Assembly: GCA_010015805.1 (NCBI GenBank)
Contig: ML978126.1
Coordinates: 62,001 to 126,000, forward strand
Direction of reading: 5' to 3'
Origin: Rhizodiscina lignyota
Taxonomy: Eukaryota
DNA: 64,000 nucleotides
Shown here: piece after piece, positions 9,077 to 53,408 of the stretch
Position numbering within the stretch: position 1 is the first letter of the stretch
Layout: every line of letters begins with the position of its first letter
Made by a program: the position numbers and the translations under genes
Notes under the pieces: model-generated
What the model saw: the letters and a program-made list of their open reading frames with translations, nothing else
Database searches by the model: none
Told to the model about the DNA's origin: nothing

Positions 9077-9239
9077 CGCCGCGGACGCTCGCTTGCCCGA
9101 GAGCTTGCCAGGCTCTCGTGGCGGGGTACGCCAACTCCGATTAGGCTCGTATCCTGCCTCGGAGCTCGTACATTAGCCCAGTACAGCATCTATCAACATC
9201 CCTAAATTCAGGCCCCCCCTTAGGCGCCGCGGACCGAGG
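9077..9239. promoter_or_regulatory. candidate Zn2Cys6 binding sites in the divergent lactonase/BVMO promoter
   Basis: CCTCGG 9157-9162 and CCGAGG 9234-9239 (FarA/FarB/Ctf1 core motif); exact 10-bp direct repeat CGCCGCGGAC at 9077-9086 and 9225-9234; CreA-type GCGGGG at 9121-9126. Confidence 0.45.
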
Positions 9240-9526
9240 ACGGTCTAATAATGACCCTTGGGATATACATCGAACCGATTCAGATCTTCCCTGGGCTTGG
9301 CTCAACCTCCACCATTTCGGTATCAAATTCAGAGACGTAAATTGACTTCAAAATGGCACAAGTTATATTTAATATTACTCCAGATGCTCTTCGTTTATGT
9401 CTTAGAAGTGCATTTATTATTCATTTATTCAAGTTCGCTATTATACCATTACTTCAAGACCAGACCGCTATCAATCATCTATGCTCGTACTCTAATTAAT
9501 TCAACTTCACCTTAACAACTCTCACC

Positions 9527-12655: not shown

Positions 12656-15188
12656 CTAAACTTTGATTATGCCTTGCGCTAAAGAAACCTCCTGAAATCG
12701 GATAACAATAGAGTGGATATTTACTGGCGGCAAGAGCATTTCTGTCTTTTGCTCGAAACGGGATTCGAAGGTTCGAGAGACGGGCTGATATTCTTCCAGA
12801 GGACCTTCCGAAGCCATGCGTTTGTGTGCAACGGATAGGCTTGCATCAATAAGATCCATTACGAAATCTCCGACCTCGTAGCGTTCGGTGAGGATTTGGA
12901 ATGATTTCGCGCAAAGCAAGAGATCTGAGAGCGATTGTGGATTGCACGTCATCGAATTTTTGACGAAGAGATGGTGGAGTGTGAATGGTACGAGTAAAAA
13001 GATAATTCTGTAATGGGGTATCAGCATGCTATATCAGTAATGTAACGTAAAAGAGCGAGATAATCCCTCCGTTCTGAAGAGCATGACATACGCTGTCACA
13101 GGTAGAAATCCGACCAGTTTATTGGCCTCCAACGAACGGAAGATGTCCATTGTAGAGCAAACACTATCCCATAATGCACTTCTTGAAGGCTCTCGCATCA
13201 TGGCGGCCCATGGACTGAGAACTGCTCGTTCGGAGTTGAGACTCAGACTAGTCTGATGCAAGGTCGAAATCGTAAATCTACGCAGAGCGTTAGACCGTCT
13301 CGTGAAACAAATTACGGTGTAGTGACTGACTCATATGTAAGTTTCAGCAGACTTTGGTGGAGGAGGAAGGCGCTTCGATCTGGTTCGGTGGTATCTTCAG
13401 GCGGTACACTTGAAAGCAGCCCAGCGTGCTTGGCACGAAAGAGAGAGAGGCTGGCATCTGAGTCTTCAATCTCACCTAATGCTGACTTCGCCAATCCGCC
13501 CGAGGCATATTCGGGAACAGTGCTACTTGGATTTCCCCGTTCCAAGAGCAGCCGGCATATAGAAACCATATGACGCGTCAATTCCACTCTGGCAATGAAG
13601 TACTGAGCAAGATCCCTTTTCGTATCCGCCTCGAGGAACCAGGAGAAACTCAAGTCACTCTCTAGCTCAGGGAGAGTGATCGAATCGATCGGAACAGAGA
13701 TTATTTCGGGTTCGCTCGTTGCTTTGAGTCCAAGAACCATGCCAATTGCGCGCATCAACCAGCAGGAATAGACCCTTTTCCAGTGTGTCGAATCAGGAAC
13801 ACTGGGGTCCGATGCTTTGACTTTCAACATTCCATTGGCAGCCTTGAAACGACGGAAGCCTTCTAGAATCCAACGCTCGTTGTCGTAGAACGAATTCAAG
13901 TACGAACGTTGAAAGCTGAGTAGGACACAAATCTGTAATCGGCTGAAATCATCCGTTTCGCAATCTGATTCATACAGAATTTTGGCTCTGGTGAAAAAGG
14001 CATCGCGCATTTTGCGAATAGATTTGAATCCTTCAGCTTGGGCGTCTTCTTGAGTAATATACTTGAACCCAAGTCAGCAAATATTCACCAATGTCTGAAA
14101 TAAACGTACGGTACTTGCGATGAACAGAACAGCATTCAGCAATGCCAGACTGATTGGTTTGATATTCCCTTGCTCATTGGATAGTCCATCTGCATGCAAT
14201 ATAGAGCGGAAGTCGCGCTCAGTTAGAATCGGCCAGCTTGGATGAAAGTATATGAAGTATAATCGGACAAGTTTATTTACTATTTGTAGTCGCGGGATAG
14301 AAGTCGCCCTGGATGAGGCGATCTTGGTGCGTTGTTCGCTTGTGAGATCTTGTGGCGACCAGGCCTTAATCCAAGGATACAGTGACGAAAATGCTTGAGA
14401 TCCGGCTATACTCGAGTTAGATTCTGTTCGAAAGCTCGCCGAACTACAAGGGCTCCATTGGCCCGTAGAAGCTGTATCCTGTAATTCTGCTTGCTGACTC
14501 TGGTCCCCGTTGAATTGAATATAGTTGGTCAACCAATCCCCGTCTCCGGGAGTTGGAGAGTAATGAATGCCTCGAAGAGATATGTCAATGTGCTCAAAAA
14601 GATCCGGATAACGTCCTTCTAGTCCGGCTACGCGGTCCTGCCTTACATTTCCTCCAGCTAGCCGGGCACTCTGCAATTCTCTTTGCTCGATACCTTCAGA
14701 ACTGTCTAGATTCAACCCAAAGAACATCTCAGCATTATCAAATACGGCAGTCGGATCACTGGTCGGTAATCCTTCTTGAGGGCCTACTCCGCTGGTGTTT
14801 TTCGAATGGGGTTGAACCGACTGTACCGTTGTTTGACCATTCGGATGCGCCTTAGTAGATGAGATGTGTGAGGCTGCTTTGCTTCGACGCTGGCGACTGA
14901 CCATTGTCAGCGTGCAGGCCTTGCTCTCAAAGCATGTGTAGGGTCACTGTTCATGATCTCGACGTACTGGTTGGTTGGCACGATACATTGGACACTGTCA
15001 AACTCGCAATTGGTACACAAGCGCGGATAGCGAAGTAACACGTCGCATCTCACTTTACGAGACCTGCATGCAGCACATGCCTTCGCCGCTCTTCGATGCT
15101 GCAGTCGGCGCTCTGGCAGCTGTGGAATACCATCAGACAGGATTTGGGCTGTTCCTGGAGGCGTGTCGGGCTGTCGCAGTTGGGCCAT
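12656..15188 (-). CDS. Zn(II)2Cys6 transcription factor, Ctf1beta/FarB-like, with fungal-specific TF domain, 5 exons
   Basis: RRAAKACAACRSRKVRCDVLLRYPRLCTNCEFDSVQC; downstream exons with LYFIYFHPSWPIL, SLALLNAVLF, RDAFFTRAKILYESDCETD, WKRVYSCWLMR. Confidence 0.87.
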
Positions 15189-16198
15189 TGTTTAGGGAGA
15201 CTGATGGTAGAACAATATCGAGCTGGTGGAGTAGAGTACTCTATCCGAGCTCGGCGTATCGTAAGATCTCCAGATCATTGCAATTAAACATTTTGACGGG
15301 AAGAAGTATTCTTTTAGAAGAAACAGTTGAACGCTTGTTGCGAGTCAACACCGTTGTGTCCGACGATATGTCAGCGATCCGTTGCGGGGAAATAAGGAGG
15401 TTTTGCTGTGTCGCGTGTATCCTTGCGTCCTTTAGTGTAACTACAAACTACTCCTGGTAAACTTCAAAGCCTACAATGGCGTTCATCAGAGTTTTCTACG
15501 CGCTTTTGCTGCTTTCGATCCGCCTGCCCACATCAGTGCTTCCAAAAATCCGTCCATGAGGTCTTCTCTCCTCCGTAAGCGGTCATAGCTTGGCTTTTTC
15601 CAGGTTCAGCTTATCATGCTGAGAAACGGACGAACAGCAACGCTCTTAAACTCGTCGATGCGGCACTTTAAAAGAAACGATACAGCAGGCTCAGCTGTCA
15701 TGGATACTCAGCCTTTCAACTGGGAACTTAAGGCGACAAATGCAAGGGGCTACCATCGTGTCTCCGATGAAATCATGGAAATGGACGGTTTTCCGGATCC
15801 TGCGGAGTCAGCCGCTGAAGTCGCCTAGGGCAACAGATCTCAAAAGAGCTTGCAACTCGGCAGGATACTCATGAATAGGACGGAGCTGACGGATATCCAC
15901 AGGTATGGCCGTATTTGTAGTTAGTCCTTTTTAGGATTATCACTCTGCTGCCTGGTACCAACTGCTTATCGTTAAGGGACGGGATATTATATGATGACTC
16001 GCAAAATGCTTACCTTGTCTGCATGGGTAAATCATTCGACACGAGAGAAGCTGGTAACGTGAGACAGCTCCAGCTGGTACATATGTCGTTTTCGTTTGCT
16101 TCGAAGCTCTCCTCCTCTTCAGAAGTTCGGGCTGCCACTCACAACTGCTTTGCTTCCTTCAACTCTTTCGTGGATTAGTCGATCATCTTCTTATCAAT

Positions 16199-17506
16199 AT
16201 GGCATCGCAAACCGCCCAGGGCCCGTATAGTGTCCATATCCTCGAGAAGAAGGATTATACGAAGCAGCATATTGTGGAATTCAATGAGCCTCTTCCACCT
16301 CTGGCACCCTCTTCCGTCCGCGTTCAAACTTCGCTCATTTCTCTAACGACAAACAACATCACCTACGCGCGATTGGGCCATGTTCCAATGTTTAACTGGT
16401 GGGACGCCAGTCCACTGCCGTTCAAAGAAGGAGAGTACTCGAATTCCGAAAAGTATGGCCGCGTGAATGCCTGGGGCATTGGTACGGTGATAGAGAGCAC
16501 CGCCGAATTTGTTCCTGTTGGAACAAAGTTGTTCGGTTATCATCCGATTGGCACTCTTCCCGCGGACAAGGTTGTCAAAATCTCCGAGCTGCCTGGTATG
16601 ATTGACGACATATCAGAGCACAGGAAATCCCTCTTTCCCGGATACAATCAGTATTACATTCTTGGAGAGCGCGACGCAAATAGCGACAAAGCCCAGGCTT
16701 ATTTTTCTCTCTTCTGTGTGTTCTTTGAGACTTCATATCATATCAATAGGCTCTCCTTCTCTTGGGAGCCTTCTGTCGGCGCCGTGAATCCACTCGGACT
16801 GGAGGTACCGCCACCTCTGGACACCTGGACGAAGGAGCGCGCCGATCTGAAGAGAGCCGTTGTTGTCATTCTGTCCGCTTCTGGCAAGACAGCACTATCA
16901 CTCGCGTATGCACTACGATTCCTTCGTCCGGAGAGTGAACGACCAAGAGCCGTATTCGCCGTGGGATCCGAGGCATCGCGTAGCTTCACCGAAAGCACTA
17001 AGCTGTATGATGGTGTTTTGAATTACGACTTGGCCAAGTCTGATTCTTCACAAGTTGCGGAAAAACTTGGGCTTTCTGCACAGGATAAGATTGTACTTGT
17101 CGACTTCGGTGGACGTGGGGACTCATTCGAACTTTGGCGAGAGTCATTACGATCCATTAGCAACAACGTCCCGGCTATTAGAATGGCTGAATCGGTCCCT
17201 GAACACGTCCAAGACATCGACGAAGTGAATGCTTCATTCGGCAGTATGCTTGACGCTGCCAAAGACACGTACGTTGGAAACGCTTTTGGCATGCGAAACG
17301 CTGGCATGGCACTTCTCGGTACAAAGACGTATATGACAGACTTTCGCAATGCATTCGAAGGCTTTATGGAAAGTCACTGCGTCCAGTGCGTGAAGCCCAT
17401 GTGGGGAGAGGGGACGTCTGGAGCAACTGGCGTTGAAGGTGGATGGACAAAGCTCACTTCCGGACACGTCGACCCCGCCTCCGGGCTTGTTTTTCGACTT
17501 ACCTGA
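16199..17506 (+). CDS. DUF2855 family protein, single exon, 435 aa
   Basis: SLTTNNITYARLG...WWD, YGRVNAWGIGTVIES, VGTKLFGYHPIG, LSASGKTALSLAYAL motifs typical of DUF2855. Confidence 0.8.
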   Translation: MASQTAQGPYSVHILEKKDYTKQHIVEFNEPLPPLAPSSVRVQTSLISLTTNNITYARLGHVPMFNWWDASPLPFKEGEYSNSEKYGRVNAWGIGTVIESTAEFVPVGTKLFGYHPIGTLPADKVVKISELPGMIDDISEHRKSLFPGYNQYYILGERDANSDKAQAYFSLFCVFFETSYHINRLSFSWEPSVGAVNPLGLEVPPPLDTWTKERADLKRAVVVILSASGKTALSLAYALRFLRPESERPRAVFAVGSEASRSFTESTKLYDGVLNYDLAKSDSSQVAEKLGLSAQDKIVLVDFGGRGDSFELWRESLRSISNNVPAIRMAESVPEHVQDIDEVNASFGSMLDAAKDTYVGNAFGMRNAGMALLGTKTYMTDFRNAFEGFMESHCVQCVKPMWGEGTSGATGVEGGWTKLTSGHVDPASGLVFRLT

Positions 17507-18038
17507 AGACATTCTTACTTTTAAGTTCTCAGAAGGATCAATTCTCGTCTTGTGGCTTCTGCACAGTTGTCATACATAAACCCACAGTATCACAGAATTC
17601 CATATTCCGCGCTTTATCATGGTTGCCTATTTCAGTTACAAATTGATTTTTGGCTGATTATATAAGTGAATATGCTTCGGTTGCTTAACCAAATCAATTA
17701 AATACTTAGTTGGTTTGAAAGAGCAGGTAATGAAGAGCTCACGCTCGGAGTGTTGACTCCCTTTGTATTTCCGCGTCTCCATGTCGGGCTTATGTCTGGC
17801 AGATCATATCGATCCTTCGCACCCAAGCATTATCTCGAAACGACAAACGCACGACAAACGTCTGAAGCAGAGTCCTGACCAGCACATTTCGATGCTCCGG
17901 TATATATACTAGTGTACCTGGTCGCGGAGACTTTTCTCATTGTCAGCAGCACGGTAACCAGTTCTTTTGATAAGATCGATTCCGCTCATAGCGTTTGCTC
18001 CTTCACTATCCATTAGGTTATCCTTTCATCAATTCAGA

Positions 18039-20328
<2,290 letters not shown>

Positions 20329-20404
20329 AAGTTTCTCATACGGATGGCGACCAATCGACAGAAGAGCTTCCGAGGAATCTTCATTCAACGTAACCTACGA
20401 GCGT

Positions 20405-21039
20405 TCAGATGCCGTACAATGTATTCAACTCCTTCAAGAGCTGTGCGAAGTCACTTTGTCCTGCTTGTGCTCGTCGCTCAAATTCTGCCTTGCTGGCCTT
20501 CAACCAAGCGAAATCATCACCGCCCTAATCAAATTCTTCAGAACTATCTTCTATGTTCTCGCATATGAATCATGCTTACCTTTGGAAGTTCTAGACCGTT
20601 CTCAATTCCCGCCGTGAATCCGGGTACGGCAAGTAAAATTGTGAGCTCTTTGTCTCCGGCAGTGCTGGATGTCACGTTGAGGACCTTGTTCCAGGCATCG
20701 GATATGTCTTGAAGAAGCCCCAATAACTCCTCACGACTATGAGCCTCCGGCCGGACCTCAGCGGTTATCCGATTCGGTGATGTCTGCTCGGCGCGTGAGA
20801 TGGTGTGCCGCCTTCACCGAAGCAGAAGATGCTAAACAGAAAGGTGTGAGCTTAACACTACGTACCCTTCTTTTCCCTCCAGCATACGCAGCCTGACTCG
20901 ACACGTCGTGGAAGTATATCGATACAAATAGTGAGGGCACACCAAAGCTTGTCGAATGAATCTGAGTGATAGCCAGGGCCAATTGACCGGTCTCTTCAGC
21001 AGTAAGGCTGCAAGAGTGGAATACATCATACGTAGGCAT
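20405..21039 (-). CDS. tautomerase superfamily protein (cis-CaaD-like / Tautomerase_3), 3 exons
   Basis: Starts M-P (catalytic Pro1): MPTYDVFHSCSLT...LALAITQIHSTSFGVPSLFVSIYF; later exons AGIENGLELPK and GGDDFAWLKASKAEFERRAQAGQSDFAQLL*. Confidence 0.85.
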
Positions 21040-21695
21040 CTTGATACAATTCCGAGCAACACGGATATGTCTGACGGAGAAAGATATGCATGTCAAGTAA
21101 GGAATTGATGGTAACGAGCTTAAATAGATCTCCGAAATAATATCGGCCGAGAAATGCAGGAATCGGACCCCTATTATAAAGTGTACTCCCAGAGAATTAG
21201 CAATTATCATAACCTGAATCTGTTCTTGGTTGCCGCGATAATGTGTACACCTGAGTTTGTCATCAAAAATACTGCCCGATCCATAAATTCCCGTGACCTT
21301 GCGAGGTACTAACATTTTTATTCCACAAATGAGATCGTCCTGCGTGTTTCGCTGGAAAGAGGCTTGCGAAGTGTGCAGAGATAACGCTTAAAAGACAGAA
21401 TAAGGGTCAAAGCGACGCAGCACGAATTAAGAGTCCATTCTGAGGGGAATGAAGTCTCATAGGGCCGGACGTAATTGTTGGTGTTCGAAAGGACTTGGAA
21501 CCATTACATCTACTTGAACGAGTGTACACCAATCCCAGACTTGTTCTTTGGGATTCGCAAAGTTGAATATGCAGTAAGAGATAGCGCATCAATGCTTCTG
21601 AATTCGCCACTATCTCCGGAAGCGCTTGAATAAACGTGAGATTGACAAGATGATGAACCGAGCGTTAAGCTACCTCCTGTACGTTTGTCTTCCGC

Positions 21696-32043: not shown

Positions 32044-33802
32044 CTACAATTTCGACTTCGCGGCTGAAATTTTGGTGCCGTATTTATCCTTGAGGAGCCT
32101 GCGTAATATCTTTCCAGTCGGGCTCTTCGGTACTTCTTCTACAAACTGAACACCCCCTCGGAGCTTCTTGGGATACGACACCTGGGCATCCAACCACGCA
32201 ACAATCTCCTTCGCCAATTGATCCGAGGGTTTGTTGCCTTCTGTGGGGACAATGAATGCTCTCGGGACTTCCGAAGCCATCTCTTCGACGTACATCCCGA
32301 GCACTGCCACATCCTTGACCTTTGGATTCTTCAGTAGCATTGCTTCTAGCTCTGCCGGCGCGACTTGATACCCCTTATACTTGATCAACTCTTTCACGCG
32401 ATCCGTTATATAGTAGTTTCCATGCTCATCCTCATATCCAACATCGCCCGTTTTGTACCAGCCATCATCGCTAAATGAATTTTCCGTGGCCTGCGGGTTC
32501 TCGTGGTAATGAGCAAACACATTTGGGCCTTTAATCCACAGCTCTCCCTCTTGACCCTTTGCAACCTCGTTACCATCCAGATCGACCCACTTCGCGCTCA
32601 TATTCGGCAGTAATGTGCCCACACTACCCTTGTATATCATCGCCTTTTCCCAGTCCATCTGGTGAGTAACTGCAGGAGATGCCTCGCTCATGCCATATGC
32701 CTGTTTGACCGGAATTTTGAATTTCGTGTAGACGTCCTCAATGAGTTGTGTGGCAAGGGGTGCGGCGGCGCTCATGATACCGCCGATGCTCGAGATGTCG
32801 TACTGATCCACGAGCGGACTGCGTGCTAGAGCGAGCAGGATCGGCGGCGCCACATAAATATATGTGATGCGGAATTTCTGGATGGCGGCGAGGGCGCGTT
32901 GGAAGTCGAATTTCGGCATGACGATGACTTGGGTGCCAGTCGCGAGGATGCGGATTACGCCTTCCATTATCGCTACGGTGTTCGTCAGCGTACTATTTCT
33001 ATCGCATAGATAAATCATGACATGATTTACAGTAGATGTGGGCGAATGGCAAGAAAGCGAGCAACTTCGTCTCGTAGCCCGCCGTGGCAGCTTCGACTTC
33101 CGTTAGAGTTAGCTGGATACATTGTGCTACCAGATTCCAATGGCTCAAGGATACGCCCTTGGGGAGGCCGGTGGTTCCTGAACTATACACAAGGAGTGCG
33201 GTGTCTTTCTTCGGTTCGAATGTGTACCTCCTCGGCACCGGACCAATAGACTCCAACTCAGAGTAATACTTGCAGTTCAACTTGGAGCCGAGATCCTTTG
33301 GCCCGAACAGCAGAATCCTGCTTTGCGGGAGGCCTACGAGACGTGCTGCTTCCTGAGCAGTTTTGAGGCCTGCTGGATGGGTCACTATGGCCTTTGTTGA
33401 AGAGTTCTTGAGCTGAAATGCCAGCTCTTGCGCCGTGAATGTGAAACTGATAGGCGAGAGGCATCCGCCTGCCCATAATGTGCCAAATAGTATTGTAGGC
33501 CAATCGATATCGTTCGGGCCGAAGATTGCGAGCACGTCGCCTTTCTGCCAATTCCAAGTGGTGCGTAGCGCGTTGCCAAAAGCCTTGCTCTTTTGTCTCA
33601 CCGTCCTACGGGAAAGAAATCGCGACTCATCATCCACATCAACAAAAAGATCTTTAGAAGAGTGTGTTAGCATTCAATTACTAGACACAATTGAGAGGCC
33701 CTTACGCTTGTTTTCATCTTTTGTGTTCTCAGAGCCGAGCAAATGCGTCCAGAGGTCGACGCTGTCAACATGAACGTCCGGAATAGCAGAGTAGCTGGGC
33801 AT
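32044..33802 (-). CDS. peroxisomal 4-coumarate/phenylacetate-CoA ligase-like AMP-binding enzyme, 3 exons
   Basis: YSSGTTGLPKG, QAYGMSE, GELWIKGP, WYKTGD, DRVKELIKYKG, PKSPTGKILRR; C-terminal SKL (PTS1). Confidence 0.93.
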
Positions 33803-40291: not shown

Positions 40292-41619
40292 TCAAGGCCT
40301 CCTTTCCAATTCTGGCTCATTTGGTTTGCCAAATCCTGTCCATTGTGTGAAATTCCTTACGAACCTTGAAGCCGCTCGAAGAAAGAAGTCGCCAATCTCT
40401 GGATATACAGCCGAAAATTCCTTCAGTGCTCTTACCGCTCGTGCAGAATGAGGATCGAGCGGGACCGCACCACCGTCATTCGACGGAGCAAGCTTTCTCA
40501 GACCGTTCAAAACATCATCCCATTCCTCGTCCGCTGGCTTCTCGATCACAATATCGTCGATTAGTGCGCAATCAAGGTATGGTCGCTTCTGGCTAAGATA
40601 TGCAAGGAGCATCAACATCCATTGTGACCGCTGAAGCCTGCTCCGCCACTCGCCTTCGAAATAAGGCGTCAGCGATCTTACAGATGCAGCGAATGAAAGT
40701 TGGTGCGCAAGATAGAAATCGAAAGCTGGTGGTCCTGGAGCCCTGGTGCCGGAGAGCAGCAGAGTTGCCAACTCAACAAGTTCCTTTTCCACAGTCGCGG
40801 ACGGTTCGGAGGGGAAGAGCTGGAAGTACTCCAGGAATGCCTGCCTCAAAGAGGCATTGCCGAACAGTTGGAGCCCATTCTGTATTCCTGGAGCAGCAAA
40901 TATGTCGTCAAAACGACTATCCTGTCCGATTTTATCGACTACCTCGAAAACGGAAAATTCCCGTGTGCCATCGTGCGTTGATGGCAGGCTTAGGACATTG
41001 TGCTGCGGGCCCCAGTTCACGGCGGCAATGGCAAGAGCTTCCGAGGCAACAAGTGGATTGTCGAGCTCGAATGCGTCGGCGAGCCAAAGGAAGCCGTGGC
41101 CGTATCCACCGGCCAGGCCATCAATTAGAGGCACCTCCCCGCTGGTCAAACGGGAGAGCACGATTGCTTTCCAATTGCCATTCGAACCTTGGAGCTCCCG
41201 TTCAAAGTACTTCGCAATGGCGTGTTGCTGCCTAAGAGCAGGCAGTTAGCTGGCACTGTGAGGAATTTGTACTGCAGCACCCGAGAGGCGCACTTCTTGT
41301 CTCCCAGGCTTGCGCTTAGTTCGCTTGCACTGACAATGTTATACTTGGGTGTAGGCCAGACTTCTAAGTGTTTAGATTCCTCCTCATGTGTCGTAGAAAG
41401 TTGCACGAGATCGCTGTTAAGCTTCAAAGCATTGAGGAGCGCCTGCATCTTCGTTAGCATACGGCTCTGGTGCTAAACTGTCCAGCTGGAAAGTCTGACA
41501 TGCACAACATGATTATGGACAGACTTCGAAGAGACCAGAGCATAGTCCTGGTGGTTTTCCGCGATGAATTTCTGCACCAGCAACTCCGGGGAAGACAAGA
41601 TCTCTGCTGTGGCATTCAT
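40292..41619 (-). CDS. questin oxidase-like (HypA/AflY, DUF4243) protein, 3 exons
   Basis: HNHVVH in exon 1, GYGH...AFELDNPLVASEALA, FDFYLAHQLS, AYLSQKRP, H..RAVRAL motifs; spliced frame is intact. Confidence 0.8.
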
Positions 41620-42350
41620 CTTGCGTGGAACAGGTCAAAGAGTTAGGTGGTCTCAAAGCAACGGCGGAGAAATTCCTGGAATACTGCTAAAAGATGCCAT
41701 TTTGTACAGTTCCGAATTATCAGTTCATGATCGAGGGCTAGATCTAGTCTACCGTGTTTCACCCTGTCAAATGTAGAAGCGAATGGGACTAAAACGAGCC
41801 CGACCATGGTGTTAATGCATGAACCCCCATTTATCAAGAGCTGAATAAGGCGAATTACTCGGCCGATACGATATGTGAGCCGATGGAGTGCGACAATTCG
41901 CCAGAAACGCCTAAATGATAACAAGCATATGTTCCAACGCCGGAAGACGGTCGCTTTCTCTAACTCGAATAAGTTAGGCTGAGGATCGGGGAGGATATGA
42001 AAAGATTTAGTTTCCTTTTGAGTTTGTTACACAAAGCACCACAACAGCTTCTATAGCTATTCATGGACTACCTCTGTCGCCGACGACAGAGGCGTATGCC
42101 CCTGCATATTCTTCATTAGCGAATGCAAATGATTGATGTGTAAAGCCGCGATCTCCATGCCGACGGCGTCACTCTCACACGTCTCGCAGTGGCTCCGACC
42201 TCGAAATGCTCTAAGACAACACGGCAAAGCAAGAATACTGCACTATTTCCGTACAGATATCTAACTATTTAAGGCGAAGGCAACACCGGTTTGTTATAAT
42301 TGAAGGTAGCTAATTAGTACGCGCTATAGCATGCTAGCAGTTGCGGTGCA

Positions 42351-43596
42351 TCATTCTGAACTCCACACCACTGCCACCGGCCCCTTCTTGGTTGTCTTAT
42401 CGAAGTCACCGAGACTAATCTCGCCTACCAGATCGCCAATCAATCCCGTATCAGTGTCTCGTCTCATGATCATGATTGTGTTTGAGACCTGATTGGCAAC
42501 AGCAAGGTAACGATTGCCCGGGTCAGGAGAGAGCGAAAAGTGCCTCGGAATCTTGCCATGTGTCTCACTCTGGCCCAAATACTCGAGGTGTTGCGACTCG
42601 CTCTCAGGGTGAACGGAGTAAATGGCAATAGTATCACTTGCAGCGCTTTTCGTGTCGCGATTCGACGCGTAGAAATGCCTCCCATCGTTCGATATCGCAA
42701 CTTCTGCCGCTAGGTGCACACGAGCTGGCGGCGTGCGGTTACTGCCTGGGCCGAGGGTCGATGCTGTTTGCAGAAGCTTGACTTCAATTTTGTCCGATGG
42801 CGGATTGCTGGAGCATTCAGGCGCATTTTCAACGCCATCCAAGGCAAACACGCGCACGGTATTGTCGTTTTCGCTCACGAGATACGCGAACGTCCTGGTG
42901 GGACTGAATGCTCTGAACGTTACGTGACGGCAACCGGTTCCATGTGGGAGTTTTACAACGTGAACTTGGGTCACATTGTTTGGTCCTGCTACTCGGTAGA
43001 CGCGGAGCAGGTCTGCGCTTCGGTCTGGGACAAGCATCCATTTGCCCGACGGGTCGAAGGCGGCTTGATGAGGATTGTGTTGGACTTCAGAGTCGTGGTT
43101 GTAGTTGAAGACGTAAGTTGCTTCTCCAATCTGTCCCTTTTCTGAAAGAGGGTGAATGGAGACAGTGCCACCGTTGCTGTGGAAAAGGGAGCTCGTCAGC
43201 TGAACCTGAAAGCAATTCTAGAATTTCCCACTCGTACATATTTGCGGCACTTATGGTCTGGCCGTTGTTGCCTATTCCACAGTATACCCCTCCTAGCCCG
43301 TTGGAGCTGGTGTTGCTAACGAAGATTAAGTTGCCATCATGGATCGGAGGACCAGTCTCCTTGCTCAGTTCAGCCTTCTCGAATGCAAATATGCCAGCGG
43401 AAGTGGAGCTCTCATCCGGGAATTGAGTTCTTGACATGGAATAGACATAATCGCCGTGAAGGGTGAGCCATTGTGGCAGGTAGCCTGCTTGAACGGTGTT
43501 TTCGATCTGTATGCTGCTGGAGGGTGGCTTGCATGGGTCAAAGGTGAGTGTAATAATGCCCCGACTTTGGTGTGCAACGTAAAGAGTGTGCATCAT
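42351..43596 (-). CDS. 7-bladed beta-propeller lactonase (6-phosphogluconolactonase / carboxymuconate cyclase family), 2 exons
   Basis: AAN.NGGTVS, NPHQAAFDPSGKWMLVPD, GTGCRH, YLVSE, FYASNR, GKIPRHFSL, YLAVANQ. Confidence 0.88.
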
Positions 43597-44229
43597 CCTC
43601 AATAAATTCCCTGCACCGAGCATAGCTCGTAACTGTGCAACTGTTTTGATAGGAAGACATTTGTGCTGTGCGGAAGGAGCCTTTTATTTCTAAGAGATGG
43701 GTAGGATATGGTACTTAGACTCTGCACGCCATCCGACAGCATTAAGGCCATTTTTGTCTCAACTAGTGTAGCCAGTGGCCCATGTACGATGAGGCTGTGA
43801 TGGAATGGCGCGTCCAGCTCATTGCGTTTACGCTATGGAGTTTGACAAGACTCCGTTTTCGCAATGCACGTCGGTGGCGGCGTCCAATCATCGGGAAGCC
43901 GAGCCCTCGACTGACCCCTTTTCCCGTTCCCTTTCCTCACTCTACGTATGCTCAATACGCTCCATCCAGTTGAAACAAAGGCCGATCAGACCGAGCCAAG
44001 CTGGAATCGCCCCGGATTATGCACCCCGCACTCTCTCGCAAGCCTTGCCAATGAAGGGGAGCTTACCGTCGCCACGGCGACCAACGAAGTCGACGCCTTC
44101 TGCCTTGTGGCACACCTGAATTGGAGTTCCGAGGCTCTTATCAGGTATTTGATGGCGATGGCGAACCTCATGCCGTTCATCGCAATCCACAAGATGACCA
44201 TATGATCGCGTTTTCTGCTCACCGCAAAT

Positions 44230-45834
44230 ATGCGTCCGAAAGCTTGTACTCAATGCCGACAGCGCAAGGTTGGATGCGACGCCGATACGGCGCCTCTCAA
44301 CCGCTGCTCCACTTGCCGGAGCCTTGAGATGGAATGCGTTTTCGATGGCGGCTTCCGGCGTGTCTCCAACAAGAGAAAGATGACCGAGCTGCAAAAAGAA
44401 GTGGAGGAGCTCAGAGCTACGATGCATCTCGGCCAAGCAGCGCCTTCTCGCGATGCTCCACCTCAGTCCCGCGCAGCACAGCATCCACCAGGGGCCAAAA
44501 AGCCGGCAGAGTCTCCCGACATTGGTACCTGTCTGATCGACAGGACCATTGGCGAAGTATGCTTGACAGCTGCACAGACTATGGAGCTGTTTCGCGTTTA
44601 CTTCGCAAGATGCCACCCTTACCTGCCTCTGGTCTTGCACTCGTCTATTGAACTACTATACGCTCGGAGCACGCTGCTTTTCTGGACAATCTGCTTCATA
44701 GCGGCCCCGAACAATCTTCGCAATCAACTCGAGGCGCCTCTCAAGGCCATGGTCACCTCTGCGCTTGATCCGACCATGAGCACTGTAGAACTCGTACAAG
44801 CTTTACTTATCCTTTCAATGTGGCCTCTCCCCTTCACCTCTCAACGAGATGACGCGTCGTTTCTCTACAGCGGTCTTGCCACGCAAATCGGATTACAGAT
44901 TGGCTTACACCGGCCAAGCATGAGCGACGATTTCTCTCCTAGTGCGAGCAGCGGGTCTGAAGATCAAGAGATGAGAACAGTCACCTGGCTTGCCTGCTAC
45001 GTGGTTGGTCAGATGCAGGCCAGTCGACGGGGCGTGCCTGCATCAATATTGGTCGACTACACTTTACTCACGTCTTGTGAGAAGGACGCTGTGCCTCCAG
45101 TGCTATCTCAACTCTGCTACATTTCCAGATTAACAGTGCAAGCTGCGAATACCATTGGTGCCAGCGCACACAATCTGACTGGCCTGATGGAGCCGAACAC
45201 GCGTATCGGAATGGTCAAGCTCTTTTCCTCTCAATTTGAATCATTGCGCCGAGAGCGGTTTTCGCGGCCTACGGATGTTGTCGAAATGGCTTTTCTCAGT
45301 TCAAGACTTCAGATACTAGCATTCGCTTTGGATGACGACATTCCTCGCTCAATCGAGCTCATTGATACTGTTGAGCAAGCCAAACAAGACGCTATCCGAT
45401 TCATTCAGATAGCATGCGAGAAGAATCTGGGTCTTGTACCCTTCTACATCTGTCGGTCTGTTTGCTATAGTGTCCTGGTACTGCTCAGGATCTTGAAGAC
45501 GCCATTTGCGAATCAACGGGAACTCATCAAAGACTCCATTGAGCGTGCACGCACAGCTCTTGGCAGCTCAGTACAGACAGAGAAGGACATAAATCACCGC
45601 ATCTGCCTCATGCTGCAAGCGGTGATATCTCTTGAAGAAAAGAGTGGTCCGAGGATGACTACGTCAATCCGTTCTCGCATGACTGCATCATTAACATGCA
45701 ACTCGGTCCGCACATACGCGGAGATGATCTATCAGCCGGATCTGGACTTGGATTTAGCGAGCTTTGCAGACCTTGATGCATTCAATTGGGACGGTCTGCT
45801 ACCAAATTTCACCTCTGAAACGTTTGTGGGCTAG
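44230..45834 (+). CDS. Zn(II)2Cys6 transcription factor, single exon, 534 aa
   Basis: ACTQCRQRKVGCD...CSTCRSLEMEC then coiled coil; YFARCHPYLP, LLFWTI, VQALLILSMWP, GLQIGLHRP. Confidence 0.9.
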   Translation: MRPKACTQCRQRKVGCDADTAPLNRCSTCRSLEMECVFDGGFRRVSNKRKMTELQKEVEELRATMHLGQAAPSRDAPPQSRAAQHPPGAKKPAESPDIGTCLIDRTIGEVCLTAAQTMELFRVYFARCHPYLPLVLHSSIELLYARSTLLFWTICFIAAPNNLRNQLEAPLKAMVTSALDPTMSTVELVQALLILSMWPLPFTSQRDDASFLYSGLATQIGLQIGLHRPSMSDDFSPSASSGSEDQEMRTVTWLACYVVGQMQASRRGVPASILVDYTLLTSCEKDAVPPVLSQLCYISRLTVQAANTIGASAHNLTGLMEPNTRIGMVKLFSSQFESLRRERFSRPTDVVEMAFLSSRLQILAFALDDDIPRSIELIDTVEQAKQDAIRFIQIACEKNLGLVPFYICRSVCYSVLVLLRILKTPFANQRELIKDSIERARTALGSSVQTEKDINHRICLMLQAVISLEEKSGPRMTTSIRSRMTASLTCNSVRTYAEMIYQPDLDLDLASFADLDAFNWDGLLPNFTSETFVG

Positions 45835-46267
45835 AAATTGCCTCTTGAACCGTATTCAATTGGAGATATGAGCTCTTCACGCTTACCTGCTTATTTTACG
45901 GCATTGTCTCAAAATATCGGCTCTGCAGCAGTTGGCATCCTGATTCGCTCAAGCTCTCAAACCTCCAGCTGAAGCTCCGCCATTTCTGCTCTCGAATGCA
46001 CTCTCGGCACACTGCGCGCTTTGAAGCTCCGATCGTATTTCAGCATTGGCATTGCGGTCTTGGCATTGCGAAAACGGAGTGTTGAGAAGGCTCATGGATC
46101 AACAAAAAGTCTGTGGAGCCTTCTGTGTCTGGTGCACATATGCTCCCCGGAGCCAGCTTGATTAGAAGAGTTCCATGACTCGCTCCTATTCTTCATCTCA
46201 TTCTGTTGGTAAACTCTTTGGAATTTCCGGTAAACAGAATCAACTCCTCATGAATCGTTCAGAAAAT

Positions 46268-47794
46268 ATGGCCAAAGTCGCAGTCGAAGCCAATGCAATC
46301 GAGCCGGTGCATATTGAGGATGTCGCTCATTCAGAGTCCCTCAAAGCGACCCTGGACGTGGATCCACTGGCCTTGAAGCGGCCAATTCCCTTTGAGGAGC
46401 TCTCTCCCCAAGACAAGAAAATTATGCGTCGAGTGAGATGGAAAGTGGATTTTTTTATTCTTCCCATGCTCTCTATCATATTCTTCCTCGCGGCCATGGA
46501 TCGTACGGACATCGGCAATGTTCAGGTAGCCGGAATGGAGAAACACATCCATGCAACACCCAAGCAATGGGCAGACGTCGTCTCCCTATTCTACATCGGC
46601 TACGTTCTATGTCAGCCGATCGGTGTGCTCCTTCTGCGGCCACTCACACCCCCGGTCACCATTGGCTTTGGGATCTTATTTTGGGGCGCTCTCACGATGG
46701 TGCTCGTAACGGCGGAAAACTGGTCCCAGGCAGTAGCTATTCGTGTGTTCATTGGTGCTGGCGAATCATTCATACATGCGGCTTCGCTCTATATATCACT
46801 ATGGTACGGTCCGACAGAGTTGGCCTCGAGGGCAGCTATCTATTTCAGCACCTCCACCCTGGCCGGCGCTTTCAATGGTCTGATTGCATATGGCGTAGTC
46901 AAAAATATCGGCAATAAGCATCCATTCCAAGGCTGGCAGTGGGTACTATTCATCGAAGGCTTAGTCTCGGTTGGCTTCAGCTTGATCGTGTTCGTCTTGC
47001 TTCCTCCTGTGCCGGAGAAGGCAGGCCGTCTCCATTTCACAGACGACGAGAGGAGATTATGCGTCGTCCGCACGTGGCAAGCCAACAACACTCCAAATGC
47101 CAAGTTCAAGTGGAGTGAAATCCCCTTTTCTATCAAGGATCCCTCACTCTATACATACACCATCATGTTCTCCTGCAACCAGATCGCTCTCTCATCGCTC
47201 TCCAGCTTCCTCCCGGCAACAATCAAAAGTCTGGGATACAGCAGCGTCGACGCCCAGCTCATGAGCGTCCCGGTGTACGCGTGTGCGTTCGTGACAACCA
47301 TTGGATTTGGCTTCGCATCCGACCGCTGGCGGCGCCGCGGCTACTGGGTTGCTTTTTCCTCCTCGATCTCCTTGCTTGGCTATGTGCTCGTCATTGCCAA
47401 TACGCACAGAACCCGCTTGCGCTACGCCGGACTGTGCATCGCCGCTGCGGGCCAGTTCCCTTGCACGGCGCTGATTCTAAGCTGGAACGCTTTCAACACG
47501 CGCGCGTACACACATCGTGTCACAGCTGGAACCATCATCCCCACCGTGGCACAGGCGGCAGCCCTGGGTGGTCTTCAAGCATTCGACACGCCGCCATATT
47601 ATATCAAGGGCGACATTGTCGTTTTAGCAATGGTTGCGCTCATGATACCCGTGGCTTTGGTCACGTCGTGGCACTTTGCGAGGCAGAATAGGAAGAAGGA
47701 GGAAATGGCGGACAGCGTGCGCAGTCAGGAAGAGCGGCAGAAGAGTCTGGAGGAGCTGGGAAGCAAGCACCCCGACTTTAGGTATACCGCCTGA
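46268..47794 (+). CDS. MFS transporter, anion:cation symporter family (Tna1/Dal5-like), single exon
   Basis: RWKVDFFILP, MDRTDIGN, WY...ELASR, LAGAFNGLIAYG, GWQWVLFIEG, SDRWRRRG, HPDFRY; alternative starts 46175/46250. Confidence 0.92.
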   Translation: MAKVAVEANAIEPVHIEDVAHSESLKATLDVDPLALKRPIPFEELSPQDKKIMRRVRWKVDFFILPMLSIIFFLAAMDRTDIGNVQVAGMEKHIHATPKQWADVVSLFYIGYVLCQPIGVLLLRPLTPPVTIGFGILFWGALTMVLVTAENWSQAVAIRVFIGAGESFIHAASLYISLWYGPTELASRAAIYFSTSTLAGAFNGLIAYGVVKNIGNKHPFQGWQWVLFIEGLVSVGFSLIVFVLLPPVPEKAGRLHFTDDERRLCVVRTWQANNTPNAKFKWSEIPFSIKDPSLYTYTIMFSCNQIALSSLSSFLPATIKSLGYSSVDAQLMSVPVYACAFVTTIGFGFASDRWRRRGYWVAFSSSISLLGYVLVIANTHRTRLRYAGLCIAAAGQFPCTALILSWNAFNTRAYTHRVTAGTIIPTVAQAAALGGLQAFDTPPYYIKGDIVVLAMVALMIPVALVTSWHFARQNRKKEEMADSVRSQEERQKSLEELGSKHPDFRYTA

Positions 47795-48198
47795 TGCATG
47801 ATAAATGCTGGAATATTGGAAACTGGTGATGTCGTAAACTACGCATCGTGGTCTTGCAAGTTGCAGGAATCAGGCCTTACGGTGACACACTTTTTTTGAA
47901 CCCACTCACAGTGGAAGTTTGCTGTCGCCAATGGCTTCGGGTCATTCTACAGGTACTGGGACTAAATCGAAAATCTAATATAGTAGGATTAAAAGCGCAT
48001 ACTTGAATTTTTGAGTCAAGATTGTTTCATCCGTCCAACTCACTTTCCCACATAACTAGGACTAAAAGTAATTCGTAGAAGGTGATTTATGCCTCACAAT
48101 ATTCGCAGCGTACGGAGTATAGCACACACAGCAATATCGAGAACTGGTTCAATTTGGCAATTTAACTAAGGGGCCAGCTGCTTCTGCAACACTTTGCA

Positions 48199-50055
48199 CT
48201 AGACACGAATATTAAAGAGGGGCGCATACTGCTGACTAGCATGCAAATCGCGATCCGCAAAGCTGCCCGCAATTCCATCCCTCGGAATCGTGCACTTGTA
48301 CGCCTTTGCCTGCTTGAAGAACTGGCACGCAACGATGCGCTCGGGCTGCACCTTGTAAAGCGCGGCCATCTTCTCCCTGCTCAGTTCGCCGGACGCTTTC
48401 GCACGCTCGAAGCACGCCAGGTTGTAGAAGATGATATCGAAACAGATCTCGTACGGCCCGGCGTTCTTGGAGCGGAGAACCTCGGCGAGGGCCGGAAGAG
48501 CGACTTTGCCATCGTCGAGAACGCCGTCGCCCTGCGAGAGGAGTGATTCGAGCTCTTTGGAGCGGACCGACTGCTGCTCTGCAGCTGCCCCATTAACAGC
48601 ACCATTGGGCTTGGCGAGGAAGTGGTATCCCGTACCCGGGGGGTCAAAGCCAAATGTCGGATCGCGGTCGACTAGTGTGGTGACACTTTTACCAATATCG
48701 ACAACGAAGAAAGGGAAGTTTGCTGTAGGATCGCTAACTTCCATGAGATGGTAGACGCAGAATTGACACACGTTGCCAAGGCTGATTTCTAGCGGCGTTA
48801 ACGGCATTGCGAAATTGCCTCCTGTTCCCTTTTGGCCAGGATACGGAACGTGTACACAGGCGACTCGGCCCATCGAGGCTACATTGTCGGCCAGCTCCTT
48901 CGTCTTGGCCATGACTTCGCCAATAAGGAAGATCTCTTTGGCGATGCTGCTGTCAGGCTCATACGACCCCATGGTTCCGTCTCTGCCATAGACGCGGAAG
49001 TTTAGTTGGTAATCATCGTTTGCGAAGAGCATCCTCAGTCTGCCTCGAACACGTTGCTCGAGGAACGAGTCAATCTGTCCGATAAGGATAGGGTCGCGAA
49101 AGCTGCCCAGCCAGATGGACCGGTAGCCCGTCACCTTTGCACCTTCGAGCTTGATCGTGTACGGATTTGCAATATCGAACTTGGCTCCGCCGGCGGTGCA
49201 GGAGCGATCAGGGTGCCCTTCGTACCATGAGCTGCAGAGGTCGAGAGTGCCTCCAGGCCCTGGATGCCTATCGGCATGCGAGTTCTCGTAAAGACTATGC
49301 GCAGCCAGAGACTCCGGTGTGCACACAGACCTCGGATCCAGAGGCAAGACATTGAACTTGTCGTCCCAGACTGTGGTGAATGCCGATTTGGACTTTGGGT
49401 TCGAGCAAAACGCACCGCATTCAAGTACCTTGCCCATGTTGAAAGCGTTCCCCAAATTTTCCACTCCGTTATCGAGACAGTACGCGACGAAAGGCGAGGG
49501 GTCATAAGACCTGCCAGCAATGATGACGTCGTAGTCCGGATGCTCTTTCATCGCTTTGAGAAACGGTTCAGCACCCATTTGCGCGACAATGCGAGACGCA
49601 TCATCGACGTCCTGGTGAGTGAGCTCGGGTACTGCTCCGCATGGTGAAATATTTCCTGTGTCCAAGGACTTGTGCACCTGTTGTTTGTCGATCGAGCCGT
49701 AAATTTTGACGAGCTTGAGCTTGTACCCTTTTTTGGAGCAATGCTCCTCGATGATGTCGACAAAGTCGTCGACATGGTGGTCAGCGCCATCTCCTCCCGC
49801 GGAGCTGATTAGGAGTTTGACCTTATGATGGTAGACCGCATCCACCATGGGCTCAATATCTTTGACATAGGACATGCGCGGCACCGTAGATGACCCAAGT
49901 GCTAGCTTTTGTGGCCCGCTGTCGGTGGATCCCGCGTCGCAGATGATGGCTGTGGCTCCCATTTCGATGGCCTGAGCGAGCGCCTTTGGTTCATAGCCAT
50001 AGCCAACACTGCCAATTGGCGTGACGATCTTGAGAGGATTTGAGCCAACCGCCAT
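48199..50055 (-). CDS. AtuA (DUF1446)-like domain fused to C-terminal DUF4387, single exon, 618 aa
   Basis: GSVGYG, DAGSTDSGPQKLALG, SSAGGDG, VAQMGAEPF, IIAGRSYDPSPF, MGKVLECG, AHSLYE; C-terminal LAEVLRSKNAGPYEICFDIIF...DRDLHASQQYAPL. Confidence 0.85.
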   Translation of the reverse strand: MAVGSNPLKIVTPIGSVGYGYEPKALAQAIEMGATAIICDAGSTDSGPQKLALGSSTVPRMSYVKDIEPMVDAVYHHKVKLLISSAGGDGADHHVDDFVDIIEEHCSKKGYKLKLVKIYGSIDKQQVHKSLDTGNISPCGAVPELTHQDVDDASRIVAQMGAEPFLKAMKEHPDYDVIIAGRSYDPSPFVAYCLDNGVENLGNAFNMGKVLECGAFCSNPKSKSAFTTVWDDKFNVLPLDPRSVCTPESLAAHSLYENSHADRHPGPGGTLDLCSSWYEGHPDRSCTAGGAKFDIANPYTIKLEGAKVTGYRSIWLGSFRDPILIGQIDSFLEQRVRGRLRMLFANDDYQLNFRVYGRDGTMGSYEPDSSIAKEIFLIGEVMAKTKELADNVASMGRVACVHVPYPGQKGTGGNFAMPLTPLEISLGNVCQFCVYHLMEVSDPTANFPFFVVDIGKSVTTLVDRDPTFGFDPPGTGYHFLAKPNGAVNGAAAEQQSVRSKELESLLSQGDGVLDDGKVALPALAEVLRSKNAGPYEICFDIIFYNLACFERAKASGELSREKMAALYKVQPERIVACQFFKQAKAYKCTIPRDGIAGSFADRDLHASQQYAPLFNIRV

Positions 50056-50608
50056 CGTGTAGAACGAAACTGGTGTCGACAGTTGCTGGTCTGAGCCTTA
50101 AGCTACTGCTGAATTCGATATCAACTCGCTTTCTCTGTTGAATGCAATCCCGCCTATTTATTAAGGTATAGATATGTGATTTGTGGCCGCAATGGCAGAC
50201 CATAATGCTGCCGGCATCCTCTTCCAGCCGATACCGGCAATGAAGCCGCAATATTGAGACATTGCGCAGCCGCGATCATAGGTTTACGCTATGGAAAACG
50301 CGATATTCGTAGTTAATGTAGAGCACGATTGCGGGATCGGCATGCTGAGCGAATTCGCAGTAACCTGTGCGAGTAAACAGCCTTGAGCCTCGGAGTTCAG
50401 ATGAAAACATGGGGTAAATGCGAGCATCATGTGCGACAGAGAAGAAGCTGAGTCCAAGCCGAAATCGATCTGGGAGAAACTTTGCGTGCAGAGACATGAT
50501 ATACCTATAATGGCGCTGTTCTAGTTCATCTACTTGAGAAGCGCGGTATCAGCTGGTGAAGAGAAGACATACGCCTCCTTTAGCCGCCTCTGATTCGGCT
50601 CTCGGGCA

Positions 50609-51218
50609 CGCCGGCCTTCGGGCTACCCTATCCCGAAGCCGGACGACGATAAGGCGAAGCCCAAAACCTTTTCTTGACAACTGGAGCTTCATTCAATGAT
50701 GGCACCGGTATCGAATCTCTTGTAGACACAACGAGAGAGAGAACAAATACTGTTTTGCGTCTTCATGAATGTCCCAGTATCCAAACAAAACTGCGCCCAG
50801 CGTCGAGCACTTATCGTATGCTGGAGTAAAATTCTCTCTCTCATCGTCGGCGGTCTGAGAGTCCCCTGAGCCCAGATAAGAGGCCACGTGAAAAGGAGCA
50901 GTTGCTTGATTCAGTAAGAGTAAATGTTCGAAGATACACATCGACCAATCGGAGTATCACCAGACACTGATGCATTGAGAAATGACTGACTCAGTCGTGA
51001 GTAGAAAGGACTTGTAGGCACAGCTTTAATGAACATTTTCATATTTCCATCAGCCCATTTCCTCAAAGCTTTTCATTGATGGAACATTATATATGTTGAA
51101 AGACATCCTTAACTTCCTCATACAGACGTAGTCTTCAGAATCGTGAAGCACGCCATATGGTACGTATTGCAAACCCCGCAAGCAAGTCTCCGAGATCAGC
51201 ATCAAGCATGCTCTTATC
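50609..51218. promoter_or_regulatory. divergent promoter elements: CGG-N11-CCG inverted repeat plus four GATAAG sites
   Basis: CTTCGGG-ctaccctat-CCCGAAG within imperfect inverted repeat 50609-50645; GATAAG/CTTATC at 50648, 50810, 50875, 51213. Confidence 0.5.
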
Positions 51219-51308
51219 AGTACATGCCGGCAAAAATACTCAAATAATTAGAATATAACTGGATCATGATGGCTTTGAATTTTCAATCAGTTCTGGCAGG
51301 CTTCAAAT

Positions 51309-53014
51309 ATGGCGTCCGACAAGAAGGACGACGTGCCCACCGTCGCCGACGCACGCTCGCCGTCTATTGACGATGTTATTGGTGAGAAAGCTCCAGTCGT
51401 CGCAGCGGACGCCCGCGAGCTTTACGAGCTATATCACAGATCCGACGAAAGAGATGTCGATACTGCGGAGGCGAAGAGAGTGCTGAGGAAGGTTGACTGG
51501 CGGATCTTGCCCATGCTGTTCATGACGTACTTTCTGCAATTCCTTGACAAGAGCGGGATCAACTATGCAAGTGTGTATGGGCTGCAGAAGGGAACTCACC
51601 TACACGGCCAAGACTACTCATGGCTGGGTAAGTACTTGCTCTATCTCATGTTCCACGGCTTCACTGATTGACGGTAGGGTCGATCTTCTATTTCGGATAT
51701 CTGGCGGCGCAGTTTCCAGCAGGCTACCTCATGCAAAGGCTGCCAATGGCAAAGGTCACGGGCGTGTCGATTCTAGGTGAGCGCTCTCTGAGAGAGCATA
51801 AGGAATCCTACTGAAGAACGTTAGGCTGGGGCATCATCATGATCACAACGCCTGCTTGCGTCAGCTTCGCCGGCATTGCAGTCAATCGGTTTCTCCTCGG
51901 TGCTCTTGAAGGCGTCGTGAATCCTGCATTCATACTAATCCTGAGCATGTGGTATTCCACGGCTGAGCAGCCCATCCGCCTCGAATCGTATTACTGCACG
52001 AACGGGATCGCGACGATGTTTGGCGGCCTCATCGGTTATGCCATTGGCCATATAACGTCTGGACTACCGCAGTGGATGTACGTTTTCTTGATCTTCGGCT
52101 CTTTGAGTATCTTTTGGGGTATCGTATTCCTGCTTGTCACCCCGGATCTCCCGTCAACAGCGAATTTCCTCAGCCCAGCGGAGCGCATTGTCGCAGTCAA
52201 GAGAGTTGCGGGCAACCGTCAAGGTATCAAGAATGCCAAGTTCAGCAAGCGCCAGGCGTATCAGACGGTCGTGGATCCGAAGACGTGGATGCTTGTCATC
52301 ATGGCTGTCGCTGCCCAGATTCCCAATGCAGCTTTAACGAGCTTCACAAGTCTCGTCATTCAAGGTTTCGGCTTTGATACGCTTGGATCTCAGTATCTCC
52401 AAATTCCCGGCGGCGCTGTACACCTGGTTAGCACGCTGACAGGAGGATACATCTGTTCGCGCTTCCGCAACGTCCGATTCATCACCATGATTGTTGCTAG
52501 CACCATCTGCATTCTCGGGTCTGGGTTACTTGTGGGGCTGCCGAACAGCAACAAATGGGGACGAATGGTCGCACTCTGGCTGTGTAATCTACAGAGTTTA
52601 GGGTTCTCGATGAGCTTGACCATCGTGAGCAGTAATATTGGCGGATACACGAAGAAACAGCTGACTGGTGCTGCGCTGTTCGTGGCCTACTGTGTTGGTA
52701 ATATTATTGGCCCGCAAACATTTAGGGCTAACGAGGCTCCTGGTTATCATTCAGCCTATGTTGCGTAAGTATTGAAATGAGATCGAAATTGAGTATTGAA
52801 AGCTGACGAAGCGCAAAGCATGCTTATTGGATATTGCATCAAGCTGCTTATGATGGTATGCTTGTATGTCTACATGTGGCGGGTCAACAAGAGCCGAGAT
52901 CGTGACGTTCTGGAGGGGAGAGTTTTGACGGAGGAGGAGGAGAAGGATGCTATTGAGAGAGGCATGCAAGATATGACGGAGATTGACAACAGGGGCTTCC
53001 GATACGCGCTGTAG
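51309..53014 (+). CDS. MFS transporter, allantoate permease (Dal5)-like, 4 exons
   Basis: LRKVDWRILP, QFLDKSGINYA, YSWLGSIFYFGYL, MWYSTAEQPIR, NIGGYTKK, YCVGNIIGPQTF, DMTEIDNRGFRY. Confidence 0.92.
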
Positions 53015-53135
53015 AGGCTCGAATGTGACAGAACAAAGTTGACTCTTAGCAACAATACATTGAATGTCAAGGACGTATATACTCTTCAGTGAATACAAGT
53101 TGTCCGCGTTTACGCTGTGCGCTGTGTACTGAGTA

Positions 53136-53408
53136 GTGTTATGAAGTGTTTACAAAGTGTGTTATGAAGTATGTTATGAAGTGTGTTATAGAGTATGTCA
53201 TGAAGTGTGTTGTAGAGTATGTTGTGGAGTATATTATAAAGTATGTTATAAAGTGTGTTGTAGAGTATGTTATAGAGTATATTATAAAGTGTATTATTAA
53301 GTATATTATAGAGCTGTTATGAAGTGTGTTATGAAATGTGATGGAGTGTGTTATGGAGTATGTTATGGAGTGTGTTATAGAGAGTGTTTAAGAGAGTATC
53401 TGAGAGAG
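53136..53408. repeat. degenerate 12-bp tandem minisatellite (~22 copies, consensus RTRTTRTRRAGT)
   Basis: Consecutive units GTGTTATGAAGT, ATGTTATGAAGT, GTGTTATAGAGT, ATGTTGTGGAGT, ATATTATAAAGT etc.; differences are almost all G/A transitions. Confidence 0.92.

Follow-up and report, generated by a model that had tools for sequence, protein, structure and literature searches.

Do six neighbouring genes in the genome of the fungus Rhizodiscina lignyota form one catabolic unit, and what does the fused AtuA-DUF4387 protein encoded among them do? The genes occupy positions 40292..53014 of the window, the 64,000-nt stretch of contig ML978126.1 (GCA_010015805.1) that was analysed. A sequence-only reading had proposed this block as a candidate nitrogen-regulated cluster for the uptake and breakdown of an organic acid. 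Our answer starts from the fusion, a citramalate-lyase-type protein, and from the Zn2Cys6 transcription factor (TF) of the same block.

The fusion is encoded by a single open reading frame (ORF) on the minus strand (48199..50055, 618 aa; AtuA PF07287 plus DUF4387 PF14330). A phmmer comparison matched it to both subunits of the citramalate lyase CmlAB (PDB 9ERQ/9EVF), with residues ~5-455 corresponding to CmlA (E 1.8e-84, 34% identity) and residues ~518-618 to CmlB (E 9e-21, 44% identity). The PDB titles describe 9ERQ as an AMPPNP-citramalate complex and 9EVF as an ADP-pyruvate complex. An AlphaFold model built from 117 sequences (pLDDT 94.4, pTM 0.92), which superseded a 10-sequence model (pLDDT 66.6), superposes on 9erq_A with Z 46.6 and an rmsd of 2.2 over 449 residues, the runner-up match reaching Z 8.8, and on 9evf A/B with TM 0.92/0.90. 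Of the 67 near-invariant CmlA columns (conservation of 90% or higher across 275 CmlA-like sequences) the fusion keeps 64, and 22/24 conserved CmlB columns are kept among the fungal fusions. AtuA and DUF4387, regarded in the sequence-only reading as lacking assigned chemistry, are the two subunits of a solved citramalate lyase, and that view is outdated. The enzyme class has been known since 2025, and the reaction of the Raoultella planticola Cml is described in the available part of a bioRxiv preprint (10.64898/2026.01.16.699985).

Judged from sequence and fold, the fusion is predicted to work like CmlAB, and it is not its orthologue. The likeness lies in the fold of both subunits and in the family-wide core residues; the window protein differs in being a single polypeptide and in belonging to a separate clade. 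In trees made with FastTree (276 rows) and with quick IQ-TREE (45 of those 276 rows), the fungal fusions join a DszA-linked bacterial clade (SH-aLRT 100, IQ-TREE quick), apart from the CmlA of the methylaspartate pathway. Escherichia coli O157 ECs_0760, which closely follows 9ERQ_A in sequence and is surrounded by glutamate mutase and methylaspartate lyase genes, sits in a different clade, and the fungal block has neither of these two genes nearby. Orthology with the methylaspartate-pathway CmlAB thus finds support neither in the clade nor in the gene context. Moreover, two conserved 9ERQ histidines are replaced, by Asn206 and Tyr610, in the window fusion and its five nearest relatives. Given this replacement and the DszA-linked placement, the enzyme may act on an analogue of citramalate: the reaction type should carry over well from CmlAB, whereas the exact substrate probably does not. 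Fusion of the subunits was absent from all 157 bacterial loci examined (0/157).

The nearest bacterial clade (40-48% identity to the fusion) has a gene context of its own. Counting neighbours by tblastn (ORF-based counts undercounted at high GC), we found a DszA-like monooxygenase, closest to DszA itself (E 6e-139), in 37/40 sister-clade loci versus 0/118 other loci; a PrpD gene was present in 31/40 and methylaspartate lyase in 0/40. The operon DszA-like monooxygenase - cmlA - cmlB - PrpD is conserved across Proteobacteria and Actinomycetota, often with a flavin reductase and TctC (40 loci, L082-L157, e.g. L149:5631-10162 and L091:5412-10141; Advenella, Variovorax, Bradyrhizobium, Pseudonocardia), and we know of no substrate for it. 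These operons resemble the fungal block in being packaged with a regulator and carboxylate transporters, and the block differs in having no DszA-like or PrpD gene. In another CmlAB subfamily (L015, L032, L034, L038-L040, L056, L057, L067) the neighbours are genes of the ADP-ribosylglycohydrolase fold together with an ABC importer.

The fused form itself is widespread. We found 4064 relatives among 8000 scored candidates, and among the 120 listed all those with an organism name are fungal; R. lignyota has a second fusion (P0069), 44% identical to the first. Database labels on these proteins read hypothetical, 'CaiB/BaiF' or 'methylaspartate ammonia-lyase'. The cmlA and cmlB genes of E. coli O157 (L081:21934-23618) are annotated as methylaspartate ammonia-lyase and acyl-CoA synthetase, and such labels have spread to the fungal fusions. 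Lyases from Mucoromycota and Scheffersomyces (P0030, P0023, P0039) cluster with the window protein, with good support, apart from most ascomycete and basidiomycete copies; an ancient duplication and a transfer between phyla are candidate explanations of this grouping.

The TF gene (44230..45834, plus strand, 534 aa; Zn_clus and Fungal_trans) provides the second half of the argument. We listed 149 TF relatives, looked up 19 clusters of them and compared these with the 120 listed lyases, so that misses are weak evidence; same-contig calls in other fungi are indirect, made via contig data or accession spacing. In 5/19 clusters a member shares its contig with a listed lyase. The two genes are five locus tags apart in Exophiala aquamarina (A1O9_02313/02308), their accessions are 4 apart in Orbilia ellipsospora, 15 apart in Arthrobotrys entomopaga and 8 apart in Umbelopsis vinacea, which also has shared contigs of 25.7 kb and 12.3 kb, and they occur together on a 52-kb JGI contig and a 1.47-Mb ENA contig. 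In one further genome (L001-L003) the pair is adjacent and degenerate: at L002:1358-5865 it stands isolated in nearly pure AT DNA, both genes carrying frameshifts or a stop, which may mean that this copy of the module is decaying or has been hit by RIP. The L001-L003 lyase is close kin of the ENA-contig lyase, and therefore these two linkages are not independent. Apparent shared contigs of 2,464 and 8,833 bp were discarded as too short for both genes or as coming from different sources. Altogether, the linkages point to a conserved core of lyase and Leu3/Sef1-like Zn2Cys6 regulator across distant fungi. As a separate observation, one U. vinacea protein (P0354, 1698 aa) joins a P-type ATPase to the TF and is probably a merged gene model.

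The best PDB match of the TF DNA-binding domain is Leu3, a weak match (E 5e-5) over residues 2-65 only, and two TF orthologues are annotated Sef1. The likeness to Leu3/LeuB and Sef1 lies in this match, and the window TF differs in forming a separate family tied to the lyase. According to the available text of PMC6221358, isopropylmalate activates Leu3, whose binding site is CCG-N4-CGG. By analogy, this response to isopropylmalate, an alkylmalate, would fit a citramalate-like inducer of the window TF.

Shared promoter words connect the lactonase/TF spacer with other promoters of the block. An identical 18-mer occurs in the divergent lactonase/TF promoter (43850-43867, within the candidate TF sites at 43820..43867) and again at 46063..46080 on the minus strand, ~190 bp upstream of the first permease; this length was reached by 1/500 shuffles and 0/300 control sets, and suggests local co-regulation. 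A 14-mer is common to the lactonase/TF spacer (43826-43839) and to the divergent promoter between the lyase and the second permease (50056..51308; 14-mer at 50282-50295). Three spacers, this last one included, each hold two copies of the word CATTGCG, and the fourth has none (6 versus a mean of 0.62). The promoter words contain GCG-N4-CG(G/C), close to the Leu3 site; CCG-N4-CGG itself is not enriched (2/27 in spacers, both between the lyase and the second permease), and the match to Leu3/LeuB concerns the DNA-binding domain only. A further GCG-N4-CGC word lies at 53106-53115 of the window, between the last permease and the minisatellite, with 10 bases in common with the 43824 site.

The lactonase gene (42351..43623, minus strand, 403 aa; intron 43177-43237) encodes a 7-bladed beta-propeller of the 6-phosphogluconolactonase/PpgL type (PF10282, E 8e-56) with conserved His165, Arg212, Glu231 and Arg302, residues which we take to be catalytic. 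Against the 6-phosphogluconolactonase equivalog NF008258 its main exon, the only part compared, scores 73 bits, below the cut-off of 370. By a simple hydropathy rule it has no signal-like N-terminus, unlike 28/33 full-length relatives, and the same is true of the relative that is linked, indirectly, to Cml on a 79,178-bp contig (P0161/P0002). Since the signal-like N-terminus is missing, a cytosolic role would fit.

Both permeases are of the MFS_1, anion:cation symporter type and are 26% identical to each other. The first (46268..47794, plus strand, 508 aa, intronless) had a D-galactonate transporter as its top model, under the cut-off, and no PDB match. The second (51309..53014, plus strand, 517 aa, three introns) bears the provisional label 'Dal5-like', taken over from the sequence-only reading. 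In the 161 fetched loci there were no relatives of the lactonase or of the questin-oxidase-like protein, and permease matches were weak.

The sixth gene, questin-oxidase-like (40292..41619, minus strand, 402 aa; introns 41443-41499 and 41232-41293; PF14027, E 2e-40), has a DUF4243/BTG13-type fold, with TM 0.87 to the DUF4243 family cluster. Read against 8yxs, it has His35, His37, His135, His266 and His351, that is, the four His iron ligands and the catalytic His. It thus resembles the BTG13/GedK/AflY/PaD dioxygenases in family, fold and His ligands, and differs in that Arg354 sits where the family has a carboxylated Lys, three residues past the last His (matched by eye, the printed alignment being out of register there), and in having no polyketide synthase (PKS) among the neighbours examined. 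A word-index search recovered only the protein itself among 3931 candidates, a sensitivity limit, since the Atlas family has 5270 members. Its promoter has no word longer than 11 bases in common with the other block promoters. The gene is probably a peripheral bystander.

Taken together, we give about an even chance to an inducible unit of five genes, with the TF-lyase pair as its old core, for taking up and cleaving a hydroxy acid that resembles citramalate, or its lactone. Mechanistically, what enters through the permeases would be a branched beta-hydroxy (di)carboxylic acid or the corresponding lactone; citramalate is one candidate for the acid, an analogue the likelier one. The lactone would be opened in the cytosol by the propeller lactonase, and the fused, ATP-using, CoA-free CmlAB-type enzyme would cleave the acid, yielding acetate plus either a 2-oxo acid or a ketone. 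In view of the ligands in 9ERQ/9EVF, the acid would be activated by ATP as an acyl phosphate. On sensing the acid, the Leu3-like factor would act through the shared promoter element to induce the lactonase, the lyase and the two permeases as well as its own gene. The idea of an uptake-and-breakdown unit therefore stands as far as a regulated organic-acid unit is concerned, carried by the TF-lyase linkage in distant fungi and the shared promoter word, and falls as a conserved six-gene pathway: only the TF-lyase pair recurs, the lactonase shows a single linkage, and the questin-oxidase-like gene lacks the shared motif, with an Arg at the carboxy-lysine position. The full six-gene set was not seen in other genomes among the listed TF, lyase and lactonase relatives, the permeases not having been searched in other fungi.

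A bolder version, clearly more doubtful than the five-gene unit, is also possible: an undescribed CoA-independent, ATP-dependent route, present in fungi from Mucoromycota to Dothideomycetes, whose substrate would be not citramalate but another branched hydroxy acid able to form a lactone (2-hydroxyparaconate/itatartarate, for instance, or a comparable acid of plant or fungal origin). It would be served by a single-chain CmlAB of new specificity and by a Leu3-like sensor that is old and dedicated to it. In structure, itatartarate is citramalate with an added hydroxyl group, and it corresponds to the opened lactone. A Pseudomonas itaconate/2-hydroxyparaconate cluster, as far as it is described in the available text of PMC9875883 and PMC12290011, is similar in pairing a lactonase with the breakdown of a branched C5 acid; it differs in using a CoA transferase and citramalyl-CoA lyase, and in that its lactonase, a protein of 127 aa, belongs to the glyoxalase type rather than to the propellers.

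Several observations weigh against the five-gene unit. Linkage of lactonase and lyase was found in only 1/75 lactonase matches, and the two lie on different contigs in Phialocephala, two Lipomyces species and Thozetella; listed TF and Cml are likewise on different contigs in Backusella and E. spinifera, and the same-contig calls are indirect. The Leu3 match is confined to the DNA-binding domain, the length of the 14-mer is reached in 12/300 control sets, and CATTGCG was chosen post hoc and fails correction for 8129 words. Finally, another accessory-gene run lies at ~8-21 kb of the window, so that contiguity alone is weak evidence. One alternative is that the functional unit is the TF-lyase pair only, perhaps with one permease, and that the rest are chance neighbours in an accessory island. 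The wide recurrence of the pair alone, its isolation in the AT-rich DNA of L001-L003, the unlinked lactonase relatives in four fungi and the second accessory run all favour this alternative, which we nonetheless consider rather unlikely. Against it, one and the same 18-mer stands upstream of the first permease and in the lactonase/TF promoter, and the lactonase shows one independent linkage to the lyase together with a lost signal-like N-terminus.

Two other explanations give the block a different task. In the first, which extends the nitrogen idea of the sequence-only reading to sulfur, the unit would scavenge one of these two elements from a hydroxy acid that carries it as a heteroatom; this would suit the four GATAAG in the lyase/Dal5-like spacer (50648, 50810, 50875, 51213), a count reached by 4/1000 shuffles, as well as the DszA-like monooxygenase beside the sister clade. 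Yet HGATAR is not enriched (9 seen versus a shuffle mean of 10.0, 691/1000 shuffles reaching the count), Pfam found no nitrogen-releasing family among the six block genes, with no amidase, deaminase, aminotransferase or DszA-like family, and anion:cation symporters also carry plain carboxylates. Nitrogen regulation of the cluster and a nitrogen-containing substrate, the latter raised as a possibility in the sequence-only reading, are thus not supported, although the four GATAAG of one spacer exceed chance, and we regard scavenging as distinctly improbable. Slighter still is the chance of a route using all six genes, in which the questin-oxidase-like enzyme opens a methyl-hydroquinone ring, the propeller handles a muconate or lactone and the lyase splits a citramalate-type acid. 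It draws on the intact His ligands and catalytic His, on the oxygenase that also precedes the lyase in the bacterial sister clade, and on the family member PaD, which according to the accessible text of PMC11371914 cleaves small monocyclic hydroquinones including methylhydroquinone. Against it stand Arg354, in place of a carboxylated Lys described as irreplaceable in the DUF4243 family (review PMC12173810, in its available part), a promoter without a shared word above background, the lack of a hydratase or reductase among the six genes, and the fact that Neurospora carboxymuconate cycloisomerase is not among the lactonase's 7 PDB matches.

The layout of the locus agrees with its initial description. 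All six genes are present and intact, their families confirmed by Pfam, and the spliced models read through from the start codon to the final codon with no internal stop (402, 403, 534, 508, 618 and 517 aa); those of the questin-oxidase-like protein and the lactonase are letter-for-letter identical to the R. lignyota database proteins P0196 and P0121. The limits first given for the block, 40292 and 53014, are the stop codons of its first and last gene. A public sequencing run, which may be the window's own source, matches the window without difference. Both divergent pairs, lactonase/TF (43623 and 44230) and lyase/Dal5-like (50055 and 51309), were confirmed, as were the borders: an ALG7-like Glycos_transf_4 gene ending at 40204 on the left and a minisatellite of a 12-bp unit (~21 copies, 53132-53378) on the right. 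Elsewhere in the window, the other accessory run (8321-21387) comprises a metallo-beta-lactamase-fold hydrolase, a flavin monooxygenase, a probable fungal TF, a DUF2855 protein, a GMC oxidoreductase and a tautomerase, while 7-8 kb outside the block there are genes for a cytochrome P450 (60546-62221) and for a 4CL-like, AMP-binding ligase (32044-33673).

We found no publication on the fungal AtuA-DUF4387 protein or cluster, although fungal homologues may already be covered in subscription papers, in the primary description of CmlAB or in supplements to preprints; the one fungal AtuA paper found (PMC13399572) concerns a protein with another C-terminal domain, and its available text does not mention citramalate. 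Three things appear to be new: a fungal clade of fused proteins, the Leu3-like partner dedicated to it in distant fungi, and the evidence that the substrate may differ. For a protein common in fungi under labels such as hypothetical or 'CaiB/BaiF', the link to CmlAB gives a direct assay, and the conserved regulator offers a route to the inducer. The two-subunit Cml is, according to the available part of the preprint (10.64898/2026.01.16.699985), already in use for synthetic C1 pathways, and a single-chain, CoA-free citramalate-type lyase would suit such pathways.

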